A DNA stretch of 64,000 nt from Clostridia bacterium (GTDB lineage: Bacteria > Bacillota > Clostridia > TANB77 > CAG-508), in NCBI GenBank assembly GCA_017528085.1, contig JAFXPH010000002.1, positions 343,898-407,897 on the forward strand, in the 5' to 3' direction. This document shows, in pieces, positions 1,645-50,261 of the stretch (the first letter of the stretch is position 1; each line of letters begins with the position of its first letter). The translations under genes and the position numbers were made by a program. The notes below the pieces were generated by a model. The model was not told the DNA's origin. It did not search any database and saw nothing but the letters and a program-made list of their open reading frames with translations.

Positions 1645-2259
1645 CTAATATGCTGGTTTTGCATAAACAATATATCTTTGATATGCATGTCCTATATTAT
1701 TAATTGGCCAACAAGTATAAATCATTAATATTTCTTCATCAGTTTGAATTGGAACTTTATCAGTTTCTAATTCATTTATTACTTGTTGATCATAAATCTT
1801 ATATTCGAAAGTACCATATGTAGTTTCAATCTCAATTATGTCATCAATTTTAGTTTCTGGAAGACGTGCCAAAAATTTCTTAAAGTTGTGTCCCATATAT
1901 ACTATACTTCCTCCTTCACCTGGGAAGAAAGAATTTGTATCATGACCCACTCCTCCTTTAAGAACGTTATAACTTGTGCCATAATAAATTGGAAGATTTA
2001 CTTCAATAGAATCAATTTTTAAAGTACCGTACTTACTTCCAACTGTTGGATAATTCTCTAGTTTATGATTTTCTAAAACCGGTTCTACCAAGTCTTTACT
2101 GTCTGTTTTTATAGTTACAACATCAATAAGATCTGTTGCAAGGATAAGCTTATCGTTGCCTACTTTGTATAATACAAATAGAACTATAAAAGCAAACAAA
2201 AAAGCAACTATTATTGGTATAATAGCTGCTTTTATAAACTTCTTTAAACTTTCTGTCAT
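1645..2259 (-). CDS. sortase family transpeptidase
   Basis: N-terminal membrane anchor, a His in VYMGHNF, the catalytic Cys in a TLXTC-like motif (MIYTCWP) and a downstream conserved Arg (AYQRY). Confidence 0.75.
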   Translation of the reverse strand: MTESLKKFIKAAIIPIIVAFLFAFIVLFVLYKVGNDKLILATDLIDVVTIKTDSKDLVEPVLENHKLENYPTVGSKYGTLKIDSIEVNLPIYYGTSYNVLKGGVGHDTNSFFPGEGGSIVYMGHNFKKFLARLPETKIDDIIEIETTYGTFEYKIYDQQVINELETDKVPIQTDEEILMIYTCWPINNIGHAYQRYIVYAKPAY

Positions 2260-2263
2260 CTAA

Positions 2264-2833
2264 TTAGCTTCTTTTTCTAATTACAACTAGAGTAGCAACT
2301 GCAACAATTGCAAATACTGGTAATACATAAACTAATGTATTAGCACCTGTATAAACTAAAGCATTTCCTGAAGCTGAACCTGCATTGTCATCTCTATAGA
2401 AAGCATCCATACTTCCTTTTGCAATAGCTTTACCTGTTGAATCAACAAGTGTCATTGTTTTTTCAGAAGTATTTACTTGTAATCTTAATCCTGCTTTTGA
2501 AGCAGCTGATTTCATATAAGAAACAACTTTTGCTCCTACATCTGTAGATAATTGTTCTTTCCAAATAGCACCTGTTGAAGCAATTAATGCTTCTGCAGCT
2601 TCTATATCAGCTTTAATTGATTCTGCTGTAGCATCATCAACTGGGTTAGCATTTAAATAATTTGTTATAGCTGTTCTTTGTTCTTCTGATAATGAATAAT
2701 GTGTTCCATTAACAGTATGTGTATTTGTTAAATATGTAATCAATTCACTATTTGTAAAAGCATTTACATTTACTGACATGATTGCAACAACAGCTAACAT
2801 TACACATGTCATAACTAACATTTTTGTCCTCAT
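2264..2833 (-). CDS. small secreted surface protein with a C-terminal cell-wall sorting signal (putative sortase substrate)
   Basis: Likely start is MRTKMLVMT after the RBS AAGAGG; the ORF track start at 2911 is probably too long. There is a signal peptide ending VNVNA. The C-terminus reads LVYTGAN, then a hydrophobic stretch, then RKRS. Confidence 0.5.
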   Translation of the reverse strand: MRTKMLVMTCVMLAVVAIMSVNVNAFTNSELITYLTNTHTVNGTHYSLSEEQRTAITNYLNANPVDDATAESIKADIEAAEALIASTGAIWKEQLSTDVGAKVVSYMKSAASKAGLRLQVNTSEKTMTLVDSTGKAIAKGSMDAFYRDDNAGSASGNALVYTGANTLVYVLPVFAIVAVATLVVIRKRS

Positions 2834-2980
2834 ATTTCCATACCTCTTTCCAATATATTGAATTAAAATATAATCTAATAAATTTATATCATTAATAATT
2901 TTTAAATTCAATATACTTTTAAAAACTTAACATATTTGTAACATTTCTATTTATTATTTTTTTATTTTAAGGAAATTTAC

Positions 2981-8967: not shown

Positions 8968-9744
8968 TTAACTTTTTAATAATAAATTACTTATGTTTCT
9001 GCATATACCGAAAAATACAGTAACAACGATTCCCTTTGGTAAAAATATGCATAGAATTGCAGCTAATGTTAAAAATGGTCCAAATGCAATGTACTCATCT
9101 GTGTTTTTCTTTATTGATCTATAGATCAAAACAACTATTGAATAAATTGATGCAAGCAAGAATGCTAAAAGTGTAATGTTCAAAATATTTTGAACACCTA
9201 CTAATAGACCTAATGCACCCATAAGTTTTACATCGCCAAGTCCCATTGCTTCTTTTCCTGCAAGTAAACCTCCAAGTAGTGTAAGACCAACAAATATGCC
9301 TCCACCTACAAGCATTCCAAGTAGCATGTCTTTTACAAAATTTATATTGCTAATACCAAATAAAAATGTAAATATTAAACCTGTCTCAAATAATGTAAGT
9401 GTTAATCTATTTGGTATAATTCTATGTTCAAAATCAATATAAAATGCTAATACTAACATTGGTGTAACTACTAAATATTTAATAAGTTCAAGATTTTTAG
9501 CAGCTGTATCTTGAATACCAAATCTATACAAAATTAATACGTAGATAACAGCAACTGATATCATGTAAATATAGTTTTTTCTTAATCCTTTTTTATTTTC
9601 ATCAACAAACTCTTTTGAAAATATTGGTTTCTTTGCTATTAATCTTTCACTACACCATGCACAAAACTTACCTACAAGTAGTCCTAAAAATAACATTGCA
9701 AGGTAACTTATAATGTGCACATTATTTAAAAACATTAAGTTCAT
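8968..9744 (-). CDS. A24-family type IV prepilin peptidase
   Basis: Polytopic membrane protein. Motifs include GLGDVKLMGALG, conserved Asp residues and an N-terminal Cys pair. Confidence 0.75.
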   Translation of the reverse strand: MNLMFLNNVHIISYLAMLFLGLLVGKFCAWCSERLIAKKPIFSKEFVDENKKGLRKNYIYMISVAVIYVLILYRFGIQDTAAKNLELIKYLVVTPMLVLAFYIDFEHRIIPNRLTLTLFETGLIFTFLFGISNINFVKDMLLGMLVGGGIFVGLTLLGGLLAGKEAMGLGDVKLMGALGLLVGVQNILNITLLAFLLASIYSIVVLIYRSIKKNTDEYIAFGPFLTLAAILCIFLPKGIVVTVFFGICRNISNLLLKS

Positions 9745-31638: not shown

Positions 31639-34600
31639 TTAGTATTTATATTCATCATTTTTCTTATAGAAATACAGTGAAATTCCAACGAGTAATACTA
31701 TTAATCCAATTATTCCCACTTTTCTTGGACTTCCTGATTTAGGAATTGATGATTCACTAGTTCCAACAGGAACATCTAAAACTTTAGATGTATCAGTATT
31801 CTTAGGAACTAATATCGTCTTATCTTGTCCTTTTACTGGATTTAAATTATTATTACTACTTTGTTCTTCTCTTGGCACATCCATTTGTGGGTTTTCCTCT
31901 GAAGTACCAGTATTTACAGGTTCATTATTATCAATTTGTCCTACTGGTTCGTTATGTACTTCTACTACATCATCCTGATTATCAACTACATTATTTACTA
32001 CTGTATTTGTTGCATTTGTTGTATTTGTTGTATTAGTTGTATTTGTAGTATTTGTTACTTCTTCAGTCAATGTTGTATTTACTACATCATTCACTATATC
32101 AATTTGTCCTGTAGGTTTAATAATATTTCCATCTTCATCTACAAAGTTACCATCATTATCTATCAAATTTCCATCGTCATCATATAGAGCAATCTTAAAT
32201 GGTGCGTACTCTGAATATCTTTCATTTCCTGCTCTATCTACAACATAAGTTTGAGCAAAATATCTTTTATATAATTCTAAATTATCAAATCGTAAGCTAT
32301 CTTGCCATGGAGTAGAATTATTTTGTTCATCTATAATTCTGTATTTAGTAAATTTCTCATCTATACCACTTAATTCATCAATTTGATTTAGAGTAACATC
32401 TATACAGTCTTGATTATTCTCTACAATTTGAACTGATGGAGCTGTATTTGTTGGTGGTTCTTTATCTATATTATTTACAATTAAAAGAACTTCTGGGCTA
32501 TAGAAATAGCCATCTGTATATCTTGCATATACTTTGTCACCATACTCAGTTGCTACTTGTCTATCAGTGTCTTCCCACTCTCCATCATTTAATTTTGTTT
32601 GAACAAAATAGTTTTCAAGTTGAGAAGAAATAACAGTAACATCTCCATTAGTCCATCTATCTCCAACCGTTGTTGATAAAGTTGGAGGATCATCTAAGTC
32701 AAATAATGTTTCATCCGGTGTTGGATATAAATGTTGGATATTATTAATAATTATAGATATTGGTTCTCCATAATTATAACCATCTGTTAGTCTTGCATAA
32801 ACTACTCCATTATTCTCTAAAGTTTGTCTATCAATATCTACATATTTTTTACCATTAGTACTTGTTTGAATATCAAAATCACTATCTGTACTTGCAATTA
32901 CTGTTACATTTAAGAATGTAGTTACATCTAATGGTACATCTGGAGTAAGAATTATTGCTTCTTCTCCACTTGGAATAGTAAGCATAGTTACCTCTGTAAC
33001 TTCTGAATAAGCTTCATTTCCTGCTCTATCTTTTGCATATGTTTGTATGTAATAAGTTTCACCTTGTTTTAATCTATCAAATACTGGATTTGATTGCCAT
33101 GATCCTGAATTTCCATCCACATCAGTTAATCTATATAATTTTGTTTCAATACCGCTTTCGTTATCTACTTGTTTTATACCAGAATAGATATATCTTGTAG
33201 TTACTTTACTTGCTACTGGAGCAGTATTTGTAGGTGGAACTTTATCAATTTTATTTACCATAACAGATGTTGGTTCACCATATTCATATCCATCTGTTAA
33301 TCTTGCATAAACTTGAATATTGTCGTCTACTTCAACTTCTGTAACATTAGTATAGTTTGTTCCATCTATACTCATTTGAATATCGTAAATATTCTCTTTT
33401 ACTTTTTTAGCAGTAACTATCTTATTTTGATTTGTCCAATTTGGATTATTTACTGAAAGTGATAAAGCTTCTGATGCTTTTGGAATTGGTTCTGACTTAT
33501 CTAGTAAGAACTCATTTCTTTCACTTACTTGTTCATTTCCTGCATTATCAGTTGCCTTTGTCCAAATATAATATGTTGAATGGTTTATTAATCCTTCAAG
33601 TGATATTGTATCTACTGATTCCATCCATTCAACAGTTGATGGTAATGTATCATCTGTTGAGATGTAGAAATATTGTTTATTTATGCCACTTCCTCCAGAT
33701 TCATCTTTTTGATTACATTTTAATGTTGCCTTTTTAGATTCCATCTGTGTTACTGTTGGCATATCAGTTGAAGGTTTTTGCTTATCAATCTTTGTAACAG
33801 TAATATTTGTTGAAGTTCCAAATGCTCCATTATATGAATATCTTGCATATACTTTTCCATTTTCAGGAACACTTATTTGAGTTCTATCAGTATATGATGT
33901 TCCATCAAGACTCATTTGAATTACATATTTTGGATCTTCACCTGAAGCTGCTGTTACTACTTTATTTCTATTTGTCCAGTCAGGATTATCAACTGTAAGT
34001 GTTATGCTTGTTCCTGCAGGTATTGGATCTGGAGTAGGTGTACTAGTTTTAAAGTTATTTGAAGCACTTACTTGTTCATTTCCTGCATTATCTATTACTC
34101 TTGTCCATACATAATATGTTTTTGATTCAGTAAGTCCTGTAAATTCAAGAGTTGTTCCCGTTCCTTTTACCCAAGATGGATTACTTGGAAGACTACTTCC
34201 TTCTTGCATATAGAAATAGTATTCTTTTATTCCACTTCCACCTGAATTATCTGTTTGATTAGCCTTCACAGTTGCCTTATTTGTTGTAATATTGCTTACA
34301 GTTGGTTTATCTGTTGAAGGTTTTACTTTATCTATTTTAGTAACATCAATATATGTTGATGTTCCATATTCTCCGTTATATGCAAGCCTTGCATATACTC
34401 TTGTATTTTGGTCTACTGCTAAAGTTGTTCTATTTGAATAATTTGTTCCGTCTGAACTCATTTGAACAGTATATTTAGAATCTGCAGATGACACAGCAGT
34501 TACTGTTTTATTAGAATTTGTCCAATTTGGATTATCTACACTTAAAGTAATTGCATCGCTTCCGCTTGGAATTGGATTTGATGGCTCAGCAGATGTTTTA

Positions 34601-37600
34601 ACTGTAGCTCTACTTGATACTGTTTCATTTCCTGCTTTATCTTTTACTTTTGTCCAGAAATAATAATTTGTATTTGATTCTAATGAGCTAAATGTATATG
34701 TTTTATTTGTGTTTGTTACCCAACTTGGATTACTTGGTATTGTATTTGATTTTGATGCAAAGAAACTATATGTACCATTTAATCCGGAAGCAGCATCTGT
34801 TTGTTCACACCTAATAGTAACTGAATTATATGTGCTTTCTGTTATTGTAGGTGCACTATTTGTTGGTGCTACTTTATCTATTTTAGTAACATCAATAGAT
34901 GTTGGTGATCCATATTCTCCGTTATATGCAAGTCTTGCATATACTGTTGAATTTTGTGCTACACTTAATGTTGTTCTATTTGAATAGTTTGTTCCATCTG
35001 AACTCATTTGAACAGTATATTTAGAATCTGCAGATGAAACTGCTGTTACTGTTTTATTAGAATTTGTCCAATTTGGATTATCTACACTTAAAGTAATTGC
35101 ATCGCTTCCACTTGGAATTGGATTTGATGGCTCAGCAGATGTTTTAACAAAAGCTCTACTTGATACTGTTTCATTTCCTGCTTTATCTTTTACTTTTGTC
35201 CAGAAATAATAATTTGTATTTGATTCTAATGAGCTAAATGTATATGTTTTATTTGAGTTTGTTACCCAACTTGGATTACTTGGAATAGAGTTTGACTTTG
35301 ATGCATAAAAACTATATGGACTATCTAATCCAGAAGCAGCATCTGTTTGCTCACATCTAATAGTAACTGAATTATATGTACTAGATGTTATTGTAGGTGC
35401 ATTATTTGTTGGTGCAACCCTATCAAAACAACTTACTGTGTATGAATATGTACCTTCATTATCATAAGTATCAGTTGCGCTAAATCTATATGTTCCATTA
35501 TCACTTACATTATATGAATAAACACTTCCTGAGTGAGTTGTAACCTCCGTTTTTGTTCCTCCTGGTGGTGTTACATATACTTTTTTGACTCCTGAAGAAT
35601 CTGTTACATTAACTTTAAGTGTTCTAGATGAAGCATTAGTATATGATGTATCAAAAGAATTTAAAGTAATCGTTGGTCCTGTTGTATCTGAAGGTGTTGT
35701 TTCTAACACTAGTTCTGAAGAAGGTCCTACATTTCCAAGTGTATCAATGCATCTAAAGTATATTTTACTTTGTCCAGTCTTATTGATGTTTAAATATAGA
35801 TTTCCATTTCTTGGAAGAGAACCTGATCTTATACTTACATCACTTCCAGAACTTGTTATATCTTTAAAACTTGAATTATTATAAGAGTATTCTATAGTTC
35901 CTACCTGTGATTTTTCATCAGAAATATGAATATTTACTGTATAAAGACTACTACTGTTAGTTAAACTATCATAAGTAGGTGCTATTGGTCCTTCATTATC
36001 TATTCTTGAAACTGTATAGTTTAAACCAGCTGTATATCCACTTTTGTTTTTTGCTTCAAAAGTATATTTACCATTTTCTTTAGCTATATATGTGTAAACA
36101 TTACTACTATTAATAGTAAGATTTGTTGTATTACCATCTGGATCTGTAACTTTAAAATACTCTAATCCTCTAGAATCATGTGGAATTACATTTAATGTGA
36201 TTGTTAATGTTCTAGCAGTTCCAGAACTTGGACTAGAAGAAAGACTTATTTCTGGAGTGCCTACTGTTCCTGGATCAGGATCATCTCCACCTCCACCAGA
36301 AAGGCCATTTACTGTAAAGCCAGCTCCTCTTGAATTTCCAGCATTATCTTCTGCATAGATATAATATGTTCCATTTTCTGTAACATAATAAATGTAATTT
36401 CCTTGCTCATCTGGTACCATATTGTCTTGAATAATATTTGTTTTATCATTTTTTGCTAAATAAACTCTTCTTATTCCTGAATCTGCATCATATGCAGTTC
36501 CTATACCTTGTTTTGGTGTAGTAGCATCTGCAGCAGTTGGTATAATATTTGTAACTACTGGTGGTGTTGTGTCTTGTTTTTCCCATACAGCTGTTAAGAC
36601 TACTGGACCTGTTACACCACTTCCTCTTGGAGAAAGTGATGGCTCAGGACCATTAGCACCATTCCATCCAAGGAATCTATATCCACTTCTAGTTATTGAT
36701 CCAATAGTAAATGTATTATTTGTATTATATGTTTGATTTAATGAAGTGTACTTACCATAAGTTAAATTATAAATAATATTATATGTTGAAGGTAGTGTCC
36801 AATATTTATATAACATATCTACGGCAACGGCACGAGATATTTGACTAGTAGGTCCATACGTTGAACCCGTATCTGTAATAATACCTTTTGAATAACACCA
36901 ACAAATTGCTTTATAAAACCAATCTGAGCTTGTAACATCAGTATATGGTAATGATATTGATGAAACTTGAGGTGAATCTGCTAATCTATATATCATTGTT
37001 GCATATTCAGCTTTTGTGCATGCTCTTTCTGGTTCAAATGTTCCAGAAGGATTCCCTTCTACTATATGTTTTTTTTCTAAAGCCCATTTAATGGCATTTG
37101 CATAGTAGCTAGTTCTAGGTACATCGCTAAAAGCATATAAATTATTTTCATAATCTACATTATCTCGTCCTCTAAATAAGACTCCATCTAGATTATATGA
37201 TCTATATATAATCTCTACAGCATCTCCTCTTTTTATTGAATTATTTGGAGAAAATGTATTTGATGTTGTTCCATTTACTATTCCATTTTTTAATGCCCAA
37301 TCAACAGCATTATAATATTGATTTGACATTGGCACATCAGTAAATGTTCTCATGACATTCATATTTATAAAATAAGATCTAACTGTATTCTCTCCAAAAG
37401 ATAATGGACATTTATTATTTTTACTAGAATTAGTTGAAGTAGAAGTACAATTTTGATATACACAATCGTAAGCCCTAAATCCTCCAAAATCAAACATATT
37501 GTTTTCAGCTTTACAGTTATTCACAACAAATCTATCACTTGTTTCTGTAGCTACATAATCTTCTGGAGAATAGTATCCTTGATGTTCAAAAAAGAACCCA

Positions 37601-38448
37601 TATTTATAATTATCATTAGCTTCACAATTATCAATATATATAGATTCTTCATTTACATAACCTGTTCCTATTCCAAATCCTGACGCTCCTTTAGCATTTT
37701 CTCCTCCTCCGTTAGTAGCTTTATCTGCTTCTCTTCCACAACCAATCGCTTTACAGTTTGTAATTGTGCATTCAATAGGACAATCCATACCAAATCCTGT
37801 TGCAATTGTATCTTTAACAATAACATTATCCCAATCGCAGTATTTAAAAAGATTAATCATAAATCCTTTTCCCGCAGAATTATACACATCACAACTAGCC
37901 TCTTTTCCATCAATTACGAAAGAAGAAAAATCTGCATTTACTAAATATTTATATTTTCCACCTTCCATTATTCTTTCACGAACACTATTATAATAGAATA
38001 AGTCTAAACCTTGCTCGACTTTTCCATAAGGTTTTAGAATGGTATTTTCACCTTTTCCAATAATTTTTACATTATTTTTTGGAGCAAGACAATATCCAAA
38101 TGGTTCATATTTTCCAGTTTTAGCATTATAAGCATAATCAGCCATATTAAAGTAAAATGTTCCTGCAGGTAGATATATTTCTCCTCCGCCACTATTACTT
38201 ACTGTATCAATTAGTCCTTGTAAATATACTCTATTAGCTTTCATTATAGCTTCAGTTTTTCCAGTCTTAAGTCCAGTTGCAGAAACTGTTAAGCCATTGA
38301 AATCACTGAATTCTCCGGCATAATAATGTTTAGTTTTATGACCAACAAATAAACAGCACAAAGTAGCTATTATAATCATAATAGCTACCCAACCTCTAAT
38401 ATTTAGTTTCTTTTTTCTCTTCACATATGTTTGATCTGTATAAATCAT
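31639..38448 (-). CDS. giant cell-wall-anchored surface protein (2269 aa)
   Basis: Domain order: signal anchor; right-handed beta-helix (PbH1 repeats, NCKA.. type); three SLH-like domains; a Listeria-Bacteroides-type repeat; at least six Ig/FN3-like modules of about 180 aa; a Thr/Asn-rich stalk; then IPKSG plus a hydrophobic stretch plus KK, which is a sortase-type signal. Confidence 0.8.
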   Translation of the reverse strand: MIYTDQTYVKRKKKLNIRGWVAIMIIIATLCCLFVGHKTKHYYAGEFSDFNGLTVSATGLKTGKTEAIMKANRVYLQGLIDTVSNSGGGEIYLPAGTFYFNMADYAYNAKTGKYEPFGYCLAPKNNVKIIGKGENTILKPYGKVEQGLDLFYYNSVRERIMEGGKYKYLVNADFSSFVIDGKEASCDVYNSAGKGFMINLFKYCDWDNVIVKDTIATGFGMDCPIECTITNCKAIGCGREADKATNGGGENAKGASGFGIGTGYVNEESIYIDNCEANDNYKYGFFFEHQGYYSPEDYVATETSDRFVVNNCKAENNMFDFGGFRAYDCVYQNCTSTSTNSSKNNKCPLSFGENTVRSYFINMNVMRTFTDVPMSNQYYNAVDWALKNGIVNGTTSNTFSPNNSIKRGDAVEIIYRSYNLDGVLFRGRDNVDYENNLYAFSDVPRTSYYANAIKWALEKKHIVEGNPSGTFEPERACTKAEYATMIYRLADSPQVSSISLPYTDVTSSDWFYKAICWCYSKGIITDTGSTYGPTSQISRAVAVDMLYKYWTLPSTYNIIYNLTYGKYTSLNQTYNTNNTFTIGSITRSGYRFLGWNGANGPEPSLSPRGSGVTGPVVLTAVWEKQDTTPPVVTNIIPTAADATTPKQGIGTAYDADSGIRRVYLAKNDKTNIIQDNMVPDEQGNYIYYVTENGTYYIYAEDNAGNSRGAGFTVNGLSGGGGDDPDPGTVGTPEISLSSSPSSGTARTLTITLNVIPHDSRGLEYFKVTDPDGNTTNLTINSSNVYTYIAKENGKYTFEAKNKSGYTAGLNYTVSRIDNEGPIAPTYDSLTNSSSLYTVNIHISDEKSQVGTIEYSYNNSSFKDITSSGSDVSIRSGSLPRNGNLYLNINKTGQSKIYFRCIDTLGNVGPSSELVLETTPSDTTGPTITLNSFDTSYTNASSRTLKVNVTDSSGVKKVYVTPPGGTKTEVTTHSGSVYSYNVSDNGTYRFSATDTYDNEGTYSYTVSCFDRVAPTNNAPTITSSTYNSVTIRCEQTDAASGLDSPYSFYASKSNSIPSNPSWVTNSNKTYTFSSLESNTNYYFWTKVKDKAGNETVSSRAFVKTSAEPSNPIPSGSDAITLSVDNPNWTNSNKTVTAVSSADSKYTVQMSSDGTNYSNRTTLSVAQNSTVYARLAYNGEYGSPTSIDVTKIDKVAPTNSAPTITESTYNSVTIRCEQTDAASGLNGTYSFFASKSNTIPSNPSWVTNTNKTYTFSSLESNTNYYFWTKVKDKAGNETVSSRATVKTSAEPSNPIPSGSDAITLSVDNPNWTNSNKTVTAVSSADSKYTVQMSSDGTNYSNRTTLAVDQNTRVYARLAYNGEYGTSTYIDVTKIDKVKPSTDKPTVSNITTNKATVKANQTDNSGGSGIKEYYFYMQEGSSLPSNPSWVKGTGTTLEFTGLTESKTYYVWTRVIDNAGNEQVSASNNFKTSTPTPDPIPAGTSITLTVDNPDWTNRNKVVTAASGEDPKYVIQMSLDGTSYTDRTQISVPENGKVYARYSYNGAFGTSTNITVTKIDKQKPSTDMPTVTQMESKKATLKCNQKDESGGSGINKQYFYISTDDTLPSTVEWMESVDTISLEGLINHSTYYIWTKATDNAGNEQVSERNEFLLDKSEPIPKASEALSLSVNNPNWTNQNKIVTAKKVKENIYDIQMSIDGTNYTNVTEVEVDDNIQVYARLTDGYEYGEPTSVMVNKIDKVPPTNTAPVASKVTTRYIYSGIKQVDNESGIETKLYRLTDVDGNSGSWQSNPVFDRLKQGETYYIQTYAKDRAGNEAYSEVTEVTMLTIPSGEEAIILTPDVPLDVTTFLNVTVIASTDSDFDIQTSTNGKKYVDIDRQTLENNGVVYARLTDGYNYGEPISIIINNIQHLYPTPDETLFDLDDPPTLSTTVGDRWTNGDVTVISSQLENYFVQTKLNDGEWEDTDRQVATEYGDKVYARYTDGYFYSPEVLLIVNNIDKEPPTNTAPSVQIVENNQDCIDVTLNQIDELSGIDEKFTKYRIIDEQNNSTPWQDSLRFDNLELYKRYFAQTYVVDRAGNERYSEYAPFKIALYDDDGNLIDNDGNFVDEDGNIIKPTGQIDIVNDVVNTTLTEEVTNTTNTTNTTNTTNATNTVVNNVVDNQDDVVEVHNEPVGQIDNNEPVNTGTSEENPQMDVPREEQSSNNNLNPVKGQDKTILVPKNTDTSKVLDVPVGTSESSIPKSGSPRKVGIIGLIVLLVGISLYFYKKNDEYKY
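34325..35416. repeat. two near-identical tandem copies of a 546-bp (182-aa) unit inside the giant gene
   Basis: Direct comparison of 34325-34870 with 34871-35416 shows only scattered mismatches. Older, more diverged copies flank the pair. Confidence 0.8.
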
Positions 38449-38476
38449 AAAACAATCCCTCGTTATATATGCACAT

Positions 38477-38503
38477 AGATAGTAGTATGCAATACTACTA
38501 TCT
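38477..38503. promoter_or_regulatory. perfect 12-bp inverted repeat (AGATAGTAGTAT gca ATACTACTATCT) in the 65-bp spacer between the two giant genes
   Basis: Seen directly. No T-run follows it. Confidence 0.4.
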
Positions 38504-38513
38504 ACGAAATTCT

Positions 38514-41500
38514 TTAAACATCTTCTAAATCTTTATTTCTCTTTACAAAGTATAGAGAAATTCCGATTAACAATAATGCTACACCAAATATTCCAACATT
38601 TGAATCTTTACCAGTTTTTGGCATATTTGAATTTGCTTCTGTGTTATTAATTATATTAGTTATATTTGTTATTGATGTATTTGTTGTAGTGTTTGTTGTT
38701 GTATTAGTTTTCTTTACGGCTCCTACTGCTGAATTTGATTTAGGAACTAACACAACTACATTGTTGTTGTTATTCTCTTCAATTACTTGTGTATCATTAT
38801 TTTGTTGTTCTGTTTGAGTTGTCTCTTCTGTTTTCTTAACTTCACCAACCTCATCAAGATTTGGTGCTGGTTCAGGTTCAATTACTGGCTCAGGTGTTGG
38901 TTCTTGTTGTTCATTATTATTGTTATTTGGTTCTGGATCTTGATTTACTGGATCTTCAGTTAATTCTGAACCAGAGTTTGGATTTACCTGATTATTAGTT
39001 TCATTTGGATCAATATCCTCTGAAATGCTTGTACCAATTTCTGAACCATTGTTGTCTGTATTACCATTTCCCCCAACTGGTTCATTATTATCTATTCTTA
39101 CAAAGTTTCCATTTTCATCTTGTCTTAGATAATGTCCATCTTTATCTATTATATTTCCATCATCGTCATAAAGGATTACCATGAATGAACCTTCCTCAGA
39201 AATTTGTTCATTTCCTACTAAGTCTATTGCAAGTGTTTGTCCTTTATATACTTTGTATGATTCTATATTTCTAAATATATTATCTGTTTGCCACTCACCG
39301 ATATTTCCATCTGGATCTATTATTCTATATTTAATGTGATCTGTATCTTGTGGTATACCAGATTGATCATCTGTTTGTTGGAATGTAAACATTACTATTG
39401 ATAAATCTTCACCATTTGCTCTTTCAACAATTGAGAATCCAGGTATTTCTGCGTTTGGTGGAGTCTTATCAATATTTGTAACTTGAAATTTTGCTTCCTC
39501 ACTATATGAAGTTCCATCATAATATCTTGCATATACTATGTCATCATTACTTTCAACTGTTTGGAATGCTGTATATTCCCAATCACCATCATTTAATTTT
39601 GTTTGAACCATATAATCTTTTACTCTGTCAACTCTTATTCTAACTGTGTCTCTTGTCCATGTTTCAGGATTAATTGTACAAGTTGGAACTTCTTCTAAAG
39701 TAAACATATCTGGGTCTGGTGTTGGAAGTGGAGCTTGTATATTAGTTACATCTATATAAATTGGTTCTGAATAGTTAACACCATCTGTTAATCTTCCATA
39801 AACCCTTCCATTTGTTTCCATTACTACTGAAGAAACATTTAAGTATTTTTCTCCATTTCTGCTCATTTGGATTGTTAAGTCTGGATCTGAACTTTTAGCA
39901 ACTACTGTTACATTTGTAAATGCCATCTCAGTATTTGGTGTTGATGGTGTAAGTGTTAATACATCTTCTGTATTTGGCAATTTAGCAGTTGTTGCAGAAG
40001 TAAGTTCTGATACCATTTCATTTCCTGCATTATCAACTACTCTAGTTTGTACCTTATATGTTGTATCTTGGTTAAGTTTATTAAATGTTCCATAGCTTTG
40101 CCATGCACCATAGTTTCCATCTGGATCAACTAATCTATATTTTGTTTCTCCTAGATTAATACCACTTAATGTGTCTGTTTGCTTTGATGTAGCAATTATT
40201 GATGCAGATGTTACTTTTGTTATAGCAGGTGCAGTATTTGTAGGTGCAACTTTATCAATATGGTGGCATTCCATTGTTAAAGGCTCACTATAGTTTGTAC
40301 CATCATATAAGCAAGCTTTAATTGTACAAATCTCAGTTGCAACTGCTTGAGTTCTTGGTGAGTAATTAGCACCACCATCTGTACTCATAACTATTGTATA
40401 AGGTGTACCTTCTACTGTTTTAAGAATTTTTGCTGTAACTGTAATATCTTGGTTTGTCCAAACTGATGTTGGTTTATCAGGAATTAATGTTATATATGTA
40501 CTTGTTTTATCTAATGCTTTAGTTGTTACTTTTGTTGTTTTTGATTCTTGTGTATTTCCAGCATTATCTGTTACTTTAGTTTGAATATAATATTCTCCTG
40601 ATGGAATACCTGTAAATGTATCTGATGTTTGATAGTCTTTAAAGACTGTAGTTTCATTACTTAATACTCTATATCTAATAGTAGATTCTTTTATCTTTGA
40701 AGCAGCATCTGTTTGTTTACATGTTACTTTAAATGAAGAAGTTGTAATATCACTAGCTGCTGGTGCTGCATCTGTTGGATTTACTTTATCAATGTTCTTG
40801 ATTTCAATAGTTTCATATCTAGATGAAGCATTTGTTCCATCTGATAATTTTACATATACCCTCTTATTCTCACTAACAGTAATTGTTGTTCTTTGTGTAA
40901 AGTCTGCTGCAGTAGTAGTTTCGCTTAGTAATACTCTCATTCCTGTAGCTGATGTAGAAACTGTTACTTTAACTGTTCCATTTGTCCATGTATCTGCATT
41001 AGGTGTCAAAGTATAAGTTACATTTCCACCTTCACCTATAACTGGATCTGGAACATTTACATAGTCATACTCTAATACTTGAGATTCTGTAGAATAACCA
41101 TAACGATCTGTTGCTTTTGTTTGAACATAGTACTTTTGTCCAGATGTCATTTTTAATTCATTACTTGATTGATATGTACCACTCGTTCCTGCAGCATTTG
41201 TTAATCTATATTGAGTTTTTGATTCATCAACACCACCCATAGCATCTACTTGATTACACTTAAATGTAGCTCCTGTAGCTGTTTTAGCTATAAAAGATGG
41301 TTTAGCATTTGATGGACCAGTAACATCTATGTTTGATACACTATAGTTTCCTACTAAAGTACCCTCTTTCTCAGTTCCGCTTTCTGTGTACTTATATTTA
41401 ACAGTTATTTTATAAGATCCATTTTCTGTTACATCTTTAGTATGATCCTTATTTGTAGATGATGTGTAAACAACATCAGTACCTCTAGCAATCTCAACAC

Positions 41501-41789
41501 TTGTAGTTGTAACTCCTGTCGAACGTGTCACTTTAAGTGTTACTTTACTTAAATATCTTTCTAGTTCGCTACCTGTATGAAGAACTTCATTTGCAGATAT
41601 TGTAATATATGTATTTTTGTTAATTTCTTTATCTGCATCAAAGATGTTTAGCTCTCCTGGTAAAGTACTTACAACTTTATCTTTTGGAATATTAACAATT
41701 ACTATTGCAATTATTAAGGCAACAATTAAAATACTAAATAACAAAACTTTTTTTGTATTTAGTCTGCCTTTTTCTCCGAACCTACTCAT
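38514..41789 (-). CDS. cell-wall-anchored surface protein (1091 aa), paralog of the giant protein
   Basis: Signal anchor and Ig/FN3-like modules, with a C-terminal region clearly homologous to the C-terminal roughly 350 aa of the 2269-aa protein. It ends MPKTG plus a hydrophobic stretch plus KRNK. Confidence 0.8.
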   Translation of the reverse strand: MSRFGEKGRLNTKKVLLFSILIVALIIAIVIVNIPKDKVVSTLPGELNIFDADKEINKNTYITISANEVLHTGSELERYLSKVTLKVTRSTGVTTTSVEIARGTDVVYTSSTNKDHTKDVTENGSYKITVKYKYTESGTEKEGTLVGNYSVSNIDVTGPSNAKPSFIAKTATGATFKCNQVDAMGGVDESKTQYRLTNAAGTSGTYQSSNELKMTSGQKYYVQTKATDRYGYSTESQVLEYDYVNVPDPVIGEGGNVTYTLTPNADTWTNGTVKVTVSTSATGMRVLLSETTTAADFTQRTTITVSENKRVYVKLSDGTNASSRYETIEIKNIDKVNPTDAAPAASDITTSSFKVTCKQTDAASKIKESTIRYRVLSNETTVFKDYQTSDTFTGIPSGEYYIQTKVTDNAGNTQESKTTKVTTKALDKTSTYITLIPDKPTSVWTNQDITVTAKILKTVEGTPYTIVMSTDGGANYSPRTQAVATEICTIKACLYDGTNYSEPLTMECHHIDKVAPTNTAPAITKVTSASIIATSKQTDTLSGINLGETKYRLVDPDGNYGAWQSYGTFNKLNQDTTYKVQTRVVDNAGNEMVSELTSATTAKLPNTEDVLTLTPSTPNTEMAFTNVTVVAKSSDPDLTIQMSRNGEKYLNVSSVVMETNGRVYGRLTDGVNYSEPIYIDVTNIQAPLPTPDPDMFTLEEVPTCTINPETWTRDTVRIRVDRVKDYMVQTKLNDGDWEYTAFQTVESNDDIVYARYYDGTSYSEEAKFQVTNIDKTPPNAEIPGFSIVERANGEDLSIVMFTFQQTDDQSGIPQDTDHIKYRIIDPDGNIGEWQTDNIFRNIESYKVYKGQTLAIDLVGNEQISEEGSFMVILYDDDGNIIDKDGHYLRQDENGNFVRIDNNEPVGGNGNTDNNGSEIGTSISEDIDPNETNNQVNPNSGSELTEDPVNQDPEPNNNNNEQQEPTPEPVIEPEPAPNLDEVGEVKKTEETTQTEQQNNDTQVIEENNNNNVVVLVPKSNSAVGAVKKTNTTTNTTTNTSITNITNIINNTEANSNMPKTGKDSNVGIFGVALLLIGISLYFVKRNKDLEDV

Positions 41790-41950: not shown

Positions 41951-41976
41951 AAAAAAGAGTATGATTTCTCATACTC
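41951..41976 (-). terminator. rho-independent terminator after carB
   Basis: GAGTATGA tttc TCATACTC followed by T6 on the minus strand. Confidence 0.6.
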
Positions 41977-41993
41977 TAAAATGTACTATTTTA

Positions 41994-49252: not shown

Positions 49253-50191
49253 TTAGCAATTTTCTAAATATTTTAACTGCTTTACAAGTTCATTGATTAG
49301 ATTAATTCCATAGTACACATCATCATAGTATTTTTGAACATATGGCTTAGTTAAAATTTTATCTGAAAGAGTTGATTCTAAGTACTCATGATTTGGTCTA
49401 AATTTCAAATATAGCTTGTTTCCTTCTATTACTAAACCAAAGTTTTTCCATTTTAATTCTACAAATGTTTGGAAAAGTTCTAGTATATCTGGTGTAAATA
49501 GTTTTACAGCTTCTATTTTATTTCTAGTTATTAAATCATAATACTTTTCAAAAAACATAGAATCCATTTCAACTCTTTTATTACTTAACTCACGAAATTT
49601 ACTATTTGGGACAACTTGAATTGAATTAAAACATTCAATAGGAAGAGTGGCTTCTATCATAACTCCATCAAAAACAGGTACCCTTCTTGTTGTCGTATGT
49701 CCTTCTGAATCACGTTCAGTTTCTATTCTATGAGTGTGAATTTCACCCATTAATATTTCTGTTTCATTCTCTAATTTTCCTCTTATTAAATCTTCAGAGA
49801 AGTACTCATCATATCTTTGGTAGAATGGACTTCTGTTAAAATTCATTACTGGGAATCTATCAAGTGGTAGGTATAAAAGATTTTTATCAACACAAAGAAT
49901 TACTTGATTAATAAGAGTATTTTTATACATTAATCTAAACTTTTTATCTCTCATAGTAGCAAATACTACTAGGATTATTGCAAATGCAAAAGCAACTCCC
50001 ACCATAAGTGGTCCCATTGCCATATTCTTTGTAATATCAATTGCCATTAATACTAATTCAATTATTAAGCAAGCGCAAATAATAATACTTATTCTCTTTT
50101 TCTTTCTTTCTTTTGCAAGTGATTTTTCTATAAGTATTTGATCTTTGCATTTTGCGATTATATTCATATATTCGTTATTAAAATCTTTCAT
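49253..50191 (-). CDS. membrane protein resembling the DUF3137 family
   Basis: Start set at MKDFNNEY, which has an RBS (AAAGGAA); the ORF-track start at 50257 would run through the upstream terminator. There are two TM helices and a C-terminal globular domain. Confidence 0.5.
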   Translation of the reverse strand: MKDFNNEYMNIIAKCKDQILIEKSLAKERKKKRISIIICACLIIELVLMAIDITKNMAMGPLMVGVAFAFAIILVVFATMRDKKFRLMYKNTLINQVILCVDKNLLYLPLDRFPVMNFNRSPFYQRYDEYFSEDLIRGKLENETEILMGEIHTHRIETERDSEGHTTTRRVPVFDGVMIEATLPIECFNSIQVVPNSKFRELSNKRVEMDSMFFEKYYDLITRNKIEAVKLFTPDILELFQTFVELKWKNFGLVIEGNKLYLKFRPNHEYLESTLSDKILTKPYVQKYYDDVYYGINLINELVKQLKYLENC

Positions 50192-50213
50192 ATTTTCATT
50201 CCTTTTAAAAATT

Positions 50214-50252
50214 TCAAACAAAAACAAAAGTCTTTCATTGATATGAAAGACT
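50214..50252 (-). terminator. rho-independent terminator of the 761-aa gene
   Basis: Perfect 10-bp stem AGTCTTTCAT tgat ATGAAAGACT, followed by TTTGTTTTTGTTTG on the minus strand. Confidence 0.6.
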
Positions 50253-50261
50253 TTCATTACT

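Follow-up and report, generated by a model that had tools for sequence, protein, structure and literature searches.

The locus described here lies within a 64,000-nt stretch of contig JAFXPH010000002.1 (the window) from an uncultured rumen Clostridia bacterium, in which two adjoining open reading frames (ORFs) on the minus strand occupy positions 31639-41789 exactly. P2 (38514-41789; NCBI MBR3511686.1) encodes a stalk protein of 1091 amino acids deposited as 'LPXTG cell wall anchor domain-containing protein [Clostridia bacterium]', and P1 (31639-38448) encodes a mosaic protein of 2269 amino acids; coordinates and lengths were exactly as given in the initial annotation, an earlier reading of this DNA. 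The single P1 chain contains S-layer homology (SLH) domains together with a sortase-type C-terminal signal, a combination that is rare within the families to which its head and its stalk belong. All features of P1 and P2 given below are on the minus strand.

P1 begins with a basic and hydrophobic segment (residues 1-45, 38314-38448) with a hydropathy peak at residues 15-39, which is predicted to act as a signal peptide or else as a signal anchor. A lipoprotein signal was rejected for P1 because its 'TLCC' is not a lipobox, and a pilin-type N-terminus was rejected for both P1 and P2 because the motif G-[FIV]-[TS]-L-[IV]-x-L is absent. The segment is followed by a right-handed beta-helix domain (residues 46-365, 37354-38313) that forms the head of P1. 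No beta-helix Pfam family was reported on P1 itself at E<=0.1. Modelling of the head with AlphaFold2 (AF2) from 51 sequences gave a parallel beta-helix with a predicted local distance difference test score (pLDDT) of 86.8, and 360 relatives of this P1 segment were found, many of them with precomputed PF12708 or PF13229 matches; the beta-helix head proposed in the initial annotation was borne out by this fold and these relatives. Similarity between the head profile and the sequences of the PDB was confined to the N-terminal cap. Polar residues (D, E, H, K, N and Q) are invariant across the 51 relatives, including D182, E228, E248, H249 and K154 in the numbering of a 585-residue query, and by these residues the head looks enzyme-like.

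The head is followed by three SLH domains (residues 366-552, 36793-37353; Pfam PF00395). A match to the SLH profile at residues 370-540 or thereabouts had been named beforehand as decisive, and it was found at residues 368-551: PF00395 scored 115.6 bits over three stretches from residue 368, compared with a cut-off of 20.8, and a purpose-made hidden Markov model spanned residues 368-551 with an E-value of 1.9e-51. The AF2 model of the region had a pLDDT of approximately 90-97, and its comparison with known structures using Foldseek gave template modelling (TM) scores of 0.81 to Sap of B. anthracis (3pyw and 6bt4) and 0.79 to 6cwr. In a phmmer comparison with Sap (6bt4; 1.2e-11) the P1 sequence CTKAEYATMI was aligned on LTRAEAATMM. 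The triad is followed in turn by a Flg_new (Listeria-Bacteroides repeat) domain at residues 553-625 (36574-36792), where Flg_new_2 scored 26.1 bits against a cut-off of 23.6. When the window was compared with the diverged strain L009, the ratio of nonsynonymous to synonymous substitution rates (dN/dS) was 0.15 for the SLH triad and 0.12 for Flg_new, compared with 0.36 for the beta-helix and 0.38 for the adjacent Ig-like domains. The SLH part is thus under purifying selection in the fused protein, with the triad still constrained relative to its neighbours.

The stalk of P1 consists of approximately 16 beta-sandwich domains (residues 626-2090, 32179-36573), which were recognised from DNA repeats, AF2 and Foldseek. 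Direct repeats in the DNA delimit tandem di-domain modules of 540-546 bp, composed of an FN3-like and a 'WTN' Ig-like domain, and this di-domain unit was found by phmmer repeatedly in P1, P2 and their relatives. Residues 1734-2114 were modelled as four all-beta sandwich domains with a pLDDT of 90.8, for which the top PDB matches in Foldseek were fibronectin FN3 arrays and the Aureispira 'grappling hook' filament GhpA. The many Ig/FN3-like repeats that had been claimed are confirmed by AF2 and Foldseek, the corresponding Pfam matches on P1 being only sub-threshold. Beyond the stalk lie a D-rich block, YDDDGNLIDNDGNFVDEDGN, at residues 2091-2112 and a T/N/V-rich low-complexity linker at residues 2113-2231 (together 31756-32178). 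The linker is the least conserved part of P1, with 67% identity and a dN/dS of 0.44.

P2 contains a hydrophobic N-terminus (residues 10-40), a tip domain (residues 41-150, 41340-41669), eight FN3/Ig-like domains (residues 151-870), a D-rich block, an N/T/E-rich linker and the motif MPKTG. The tip, a domain of 110 residues with no family match in Pfam, is the most variable part of the protein, being 67-70% identical to its orthologs (stalk 87-88%) with a dN/dS of 0.44-0.61 (stalk 0.26). The alignment of P1 with P2 gave 38% identity over approximately 770 residues (E 6e-123) and 47% over the last 380 residues of the stalk. The two are therefore tandem paralogs, as the initial annotation had stated, but the shared region is not limited to the C-terminal 350 or so residues named there.

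The C-termini of both P1 and P2 are tripartite by direct reading and hydropathy, with a motif, a hydrophobic stretch and a charged tail. The P1 signal (residues 2232-2269, 31642-31755) consists of IPKSG (2235-2239), a transmembrane stretch (2242-2262) and the tail YKKNDEYKY, and that of P2 (residues 1054-1091, 38517-38630) of MPKTG (1056-1060), a transmembrane stretch (1063-1083) and KRNKDLEDV. The transmembrane stretch and tail of P1 closely resemble those of P2. The motifs and transmembrane stretches were as previously described, but the tails are of mixed charge in both proteins and not purely basic. The NCBIfam model TIGR01167 matched P2 with 18.5 bits for the full length and 25.9 bits for the C-terminus alone (cut-off 15.9), with the motif aligned. 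The last 38 residues of P2 are 95-100% identical among orthologs that are 83-97% identical overall, and the signal is the best-conserved part of the protein, with a dN/dS of 0.04-0.13 (stalk 0.26, carB 0.01). In an ortholog of P1 that is 87% identical overall (P0150), IPKSG is kept and the C-terminal signal is 92% conserved. The corresponding motifs of stalk-family relatives are IPQTG, IPNAG, LPQTG and LPKTG, and xPKTG motifs (SPKTG, PPKTG) are documented in substrates of C. difficile SrtB (PMC4155245, PMC5118464, PMC5569036). The description of the motifs as non-canonical consequently holds for IPKSG of P1, which at 14.1 bits falls below the model, but not for MPKTG of P2, which passes TIGR01167 and is of the xPKTG type known for SrtB. 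Anchoring by a sortase is likely for P2 and probable for P1.

A sortase of 204 amino acids is encoded at 1645-2259 (minus strand), approximately 30 kb from P1 and P2. It was detected by Pfam (Sortase, 79.6 bits) and by the generic model TIGR01076 (71.9 compared with 39.35), and is class-D-like with scores below the class D cut-offs (NF058671, 107.3 compared with 140; NF033746, 103.4 compared with 165); the nearest solved structures are 2ln7 and 4d70. A regular expression for TLxTC had no match in the window, and the active site of this Pfam-detected enzyme reads IYTC (..IYTCWP). It is a candidate processing enzyme for P1 and P2. The sortase gene adjoins and lies downstream of a gene for a secreted protein of 215 amino acids (the pair spanning 1645-2911, minus strand), which ends in NALVYTGAN, a hydrophobic stretch and RKRS. 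This end resembles LPxTATN-type signals, no NCBIfam sorting model matches the C-terminus, and our guess is that the protein is a substrate of the adjoining sortase. The sortase gene is followed by a gene for a multi-pass membrane protein of 288 amino acids (766-1632).

The frequency with which SLH domains and a sorting signal occur together was examined in the two parent families of P1. Among the 120 best relatives of the head, 47 contain SLH domains and 73 do not, the tail past the last domain never exceeds 122 residues, and neither the stalk nor a sorting signal is present in any of the 120. Word-indexed searches gave few matches, nine for full-length P2, probably because low-complexity words swamped the candidates, and one for P1 residues 1734-2114. 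Exhaustive phmmer was used and gave 411 stalk-family representatives at E<=1e-3; SLH domains and the head are both missing from all of the best 150, of which approximately seven have a sortase-like end and several end in dockerins. When P1 residues 301-900 were searched against GTDB species genomes, no close relative emerged, only matches of 25-35% to the Ig-like parts. The initial annotation had called the presence of both devices in one chain unusual; the co-occurrence is confirmed, and within both parent families it is indeed unusual (0/120 and 0/150). In the reviews and surveys consulted (PMC5817068, PMC8286594, PMC11557425), SLH domains and sortase signals appear as alternative ways of anchoring, and a literature search found no description of SLH domains and an LPXTG signal on one protein, which is not proof of novelty.

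The beta-helix, the three SLH domains and Flg_new together form a head cassette (residues 62-625, 36574-38265), the presence of which varies by strain. In the sister strain L010 (3731-5119), whose P2 ortholog is 83% identical, residue 61 of the P1 ortholog is joined straight to residue 626, in frame, so that exactly the cassette is missing. The N-terminal segment is also present in this head-less allele, and the cassette junctions have only about 5 nt of microhomology in common. The cassette is present in L009, whose P2 ortholog is 85% identical, and in L001-L005, with the identical 2269-residue P1 gene recovered in two independent assemblies (L001 and L002). The same order of beta-helix, SLH and Flg_new is found in a stand-alone protein of 620 amino acids (P0003, 44% identity). 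Given an allele without exactly the cassette and a stand-alone gene of the same architecture, P1 is, judged by sequence, a P2-like stalk protein with a complete gene for a putative wall enzyme fused behind its signal sequence. The double anchor is genuine, but a strain can do without the domain fusion that created it, and it is not a fixed design. The in-frame junction between head and stalk recurs in no fewer than six assemblies made independently from different samples (L001-L005 and L009). The contigs of L003, L004, L005 and L009 end inside P1 at approximately residue 1073-1074, about 450 residues past the junction, where they match the start of two approximately 90% identical 546-bp modules (window ~34249-35424). 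Since contigs end at these repeats, the repeat number of P1 is possibly uncertain in short-read assemblies.

The analysis directly shows the domains of the two proteins and their folds, the paralogy, the polymorphism of the cassette and the patterns of selection; for export, sortase cleavage, the SLH ligand, catalysis by the head and the geometry of the protein on the cell we infer the following. The N-terminal hydrophobic segment would direct the export of P1 and P2, after which the C-terminal signal, consisting of [MI]PK[TS]G, the transmembrane stretch and the charged tail, would most likely be cut by a sortase and the protein joined to peptidoglycan. The low-complexity T/N/E/P-rich linker would then cross the wall, and the FN3/Ig-like rod would keep the N-terminal end off the cell, with eight domains (~30 nm) in P2 and approximately 16 domains (~60 nm) in P1. 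The tip of P2 is likely to be its ligand-binding part, as it is a small and fast-evolving domain. The tip of P1 would be the cassette placed in frame behind the signal sequence, with a polysaccharide-active beta-helix, the SLH triad and Flg_new. The triad, probably still working, most likely binds pyruvylated wall polysaccharide of the cell that made it, because that cell's wall offers by far the nearest ligand. The tethered P1 would thus fold back and keep its beta-helix enzyme close against the wall, the place of action of the stand-alone, wall-associated relatives. As a sister strain has the same gene without the cassette, the occurrence of SLH domains and a sortase signal in P1 is a by-product of domain fusion and not a dedicated double-anchor design. 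We consider this account, in which P1 and P2 are sortase-tethered fibrils and the SLH domains of the fused cassette bind their own wall in cis, to be moderately probable.

Several observations weigh against it. The hydrophobic cores at the N-termini of P1 and P2 are long and have no obvious A-x-A cleavage site, so that both may remain in the membrane. The SLH motifs are degenerate, reading KRGD, TKAE and SRAV instead of TRAE; the basic residue of TRAE is kept in each of them, and TKAE is aligned on the TRAE of Sap. Neither csaB (PS_pyruv_trans) nor genes for wall polysaccharide were seen among the window ORFs scanned. Catalysis by the head is suggested solely by its fold and conserved polar residues. 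The cassette event can be read either as a gain or as a loss, by insertion or by deletion, and the rarity of SLH domains with a sortase signal was measured inside the two parent families alone and not across all SLH proteins. The remaining points concern the C-termini: TIGR01167 scored 14.1 bits on P1, below its cut-off of 15.9, with the transmembrane part alone aligned and not IPKSG; PF00746 (Gram_pos_anchor) was below its cut-off for P2 (13.3 compared with 20) and had no match on P1; and the only sortase seen in the window may be dedicated to the neighbouring 215-residue protein.

These last points bear on the possibility that the hydrophobic C-terminus is no more than a membrane anchor for P1, and perhaps for P2, with PK[ST]G uncut and the SLH domains as the sole attachment of P1 to the wall. 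Besides the failure of the P1 motif in TIGR01167 and the sub-threshold or missing Gram_pos_anchor matches, P1 has Ser where sortases cut after Thr, both tails contain acidic residues, and no matching sortase was identified, the only such gene in the window being class-D-like. However, P2 passes TIGR01167 with its motif aligned, no part of P2 is more conserved than the motif and transmembrane stretch (dN/dS 0.04-0.13), and IPKSG is retained in the 87% identical ortholog of P1. A sortase gene is present in the window, and the low-complexity linker is typical of the wall-spanning segments in the general layout of sortase substrates (PMC3617157). Retention of the uncut proteins in the membrane is consequently regarded as unlikely.

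An explanation of about the same standing places the function of the SLH triad in trans. The domains at the far end of the ~60-nm stalk would act as a lectin tip that binds the pyruvylated wall polysaccharide of neighbouring cells, with the beta-helix trimming or remodelling the polymer; cells would be bridged into aggregates or biofilm, and strains would differ in social behaviour according to whether they have the cassette. The layout of P1 is consistent with this, as the triad and head lie opposite the sorting signal with about 16 rod domains between them, and so are the purifying selection on the SLH domains in the fused context, the polymorphism of the cassette between close strains and the cross-binding of walls by SLH modules of different species (PMC5817068). 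Against it, the cell's own wall presents a far higher local concentration of ligand, so that binding in cis should dominate, and no other member of the stalk family contains SLH domains among the best 150 of 411. Binding in trans therefore seems improbable. If true, it would be a new use of SLH domains, for recognition in trans instead of self-anchoring, and P1 would be a cell-to-cell 'grappling' fibril whose cassette, gained or lost between strains, switches aggregation.

It is more doubtful still that P1 is a two-point staple, in which the covalent C-terminal and non-covalent N-proximal attachments form a loop or arch that serves the envelope as an S-layer-like structural scaffold, with the beta-helix having a structural or adhesive role as in PfbA. 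In favour of this are the conservation of the two attachment modules, the hydrophobic segments at either end of P1 and the close fold match to PfbA, a beta-helix adhesin for which no enzymatic role is known. The sister strain, however, manages without the whole cassette, SLH domains are missing from P2 and from all 150 stalk relatives, and the head family has enzyme-like invariant D, E, H and K residues in a group where 73 of 120 members are without SLH domains; we regard the staple as very unlikely. An artefact in which a head-SLH gene and a stalk gene were joined by metagenome mis-assembly is scarcely credible and effectively refuted, since six assemblies cover the junction in frame and the contigs that break within the P1 gene do so at the 546-bp repeats some 450 residues downstream of it, even though such breaks are frequent and the exact P1 sequence is absent from the protein collection.

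The reading of P1 as a fused, sortase-tethered fibril was compared with known systems, and the protein is built from known parts: the stalk and sorting signal of a fibrillar protein, the SLH triad and the beta-helix of a putative wall enzyme, in a combination that is rare within the parent families. The closest relatives of the cassette are stand-alone beta-helix-SLH(-Flg_new) proteins of approximately 540-620 amino acids from gut and rumen Clostridia, named 'S-layer homology domain-containing protein' at NCBI, which are 40-50% identical to P1 residues 46-625 and have the same domain order. These stop within about 120 residues of the last domain, whereas P1 runs on into a 1,600-residue stalk and a sorting signal. 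The head has a fold match in PfbA of Streptococcus pneumoniae (3zpp, 4mr0), a surface adhesin built around a beta-helix, whose PDB title is 'cell wall surface anchor family protein'. This LPXTG protein, unlike P1, has neither SLH domains nor a long FN3/Ig stalk; the sequence identity is 12%. Alginate C5-epimerases and epimerase-lyases (AlgE4 2pyg, 8ja4) and phage tailspikes or appendages (HK620, phi29 gp12) are similar to the P1 head in sequence over only approximately 60 residues. The SLH triads of Sap (3pyw, 6bt4), SbsB of G. stearothermophilus (4aq1) and SpaA of P. alvei (6cwr) form the same pseudo-trimer, with TM scores of about 0.8 and the TRAE position aligned; triads of this type are at the end of an S-layer protein and that of P1 is internal, between head and stalk, with degenerate motifs.

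The C-termini of P1 and P2 share xPKTG, a transmembrane stretch and a charged tail with the SrtB substrates of C. difficile, for which the motif is (S/P)PxTG. They differ from these in having Met or Ile at position 1 and, in P1, Ser in place of Thr, and the sortase of the window is class-D-like and not class B. Both proteins have in common with fibrillar adhesins and giant stalk proteins (PMC8286594; Aureispira GhpA, 9fly) a stalk of tandem beta-sandwich domains, a terminal functional domain and an anchor. The tandem stalk domains are as in fibrillar adhesins, the P2 tip has no family match, and the P1 head is enzyme-like yet PfbA-like. The same two wall devices are used in related Clostridia by the anchoring scaffoldins of cellulosomes, with SLH domains in Acetivibrio and a sortase signal in Ruminococcus (PMC11557425); there they are alternatives on separate proteins, and P1 and P2 have neither cohesin nor dockerin.

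Two anchors usually described as alternatives are thus found on one chain, and strains with and without the cassette coexist. This provides a natural experiment on the contribution of a further, non-covalent anchor to a fibril already tethered covalently, and also on the action of SLH domains at a distance from the wall and the modular assembly of giant surface proteins in uncultured rumen Clostridia. The locus is of interest to specialists in surface display by Gram-positive bacteria; it overturns nothing, and its practical impact is limited for now.

The locus also points to a large unstudied family of stalk proteins, many with pilin-like N-termini. Among the 150 best stalk-module relatives (P0153-P0302, relatives of window 39180-41339), 64 have a prepilin-like start, K-G-[IVF]-[TS]-L-[IV]-A-L-V; these reach 4,891 amino acids, and the canonical Glu5 is present in only six of the 64. 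Most stalk-module relatives follow this pattern of a pilin-like start (64/150) with no sortase signal, the reverse of P1 and P2. The relatives with a pilin-like start look like a large undescribed class of giant Clostridia proteins. A type IV prepilin peptidase is encoded in the window at 8968-9744 (minus strand). In the closest non-orthologous relatives of P2 (P0151, P0152 and P0156; 33-35% identity, approximately 1,400 amino acids), type I dockerin repeats replace the C-terminal sorting signal, which suggests that the same stalk is also displayed via cohesin-dockerin systems.

The P2-P1 locus recurs in several ruminant-gut metagenome assemblies. In the window it is flanked upstream by carA and carB and downstream by an AMP-binding acyl-CoA ligase gene, thyA and folA, and ordinary chromosomal genes are found elsewhere in the window (rpsB, tsf, efp, fhs, priA, fmt, xseA, a LonC-like protease and tRNAs). 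The G+C content is 29-32% throughout, with no break in composition at the locus. A phage origin of the tailspike-like head was rejected, as the flanks consist of housekeeping genes with no phage genes there. Consensus scans identified a terminator-like hairpin that closes carB (41956-41977), a promoter-like site with an extended -10 element upstream of P2 (41856-41884, minus strand) and a terminator-like hairpin after P1 (31608-31641, minus strand). Given these three elements, P2 and P1 probably form a two-gene operon, transcribed as a single unit, set between carAB and the acyl-CoA ligase gene. The 65-nt spacer between P2 and P1 contains a 15-bp RNA hairpin (38474-38506, minus strand; free energy -19.5 kcal/mol, z -3.8), which has no T-tract and is kept in the diverged strains L009 and L010 with one compensatory pair change (U-A to C-G). 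This hairpin may set the ratio of P2 to P1 through RNA processing or stability. In another copy of the locus (L011, 3586-4155) a gene for a TetR-family regulator lies between P1 and the acyl-CoA ligase gene, which is not the case in the window.

Upstream of rpsB (window 49253-55113, minus strand), genes for a DUF3137 protein, a 761-residue ORF with no family match and the LonC-like protease (AAA_32, LonC_helical, Lon_C) are found in a row. Overlapping ORFs with no Pfam match are present on both strands at 59573-60682, with 326 amino acids on the plus strand and 255 and 110 on the minus strand. Between 58000 and 62000 the G+C content rises to 0.34-0.37, and a tRNA is located at 58123-58193.

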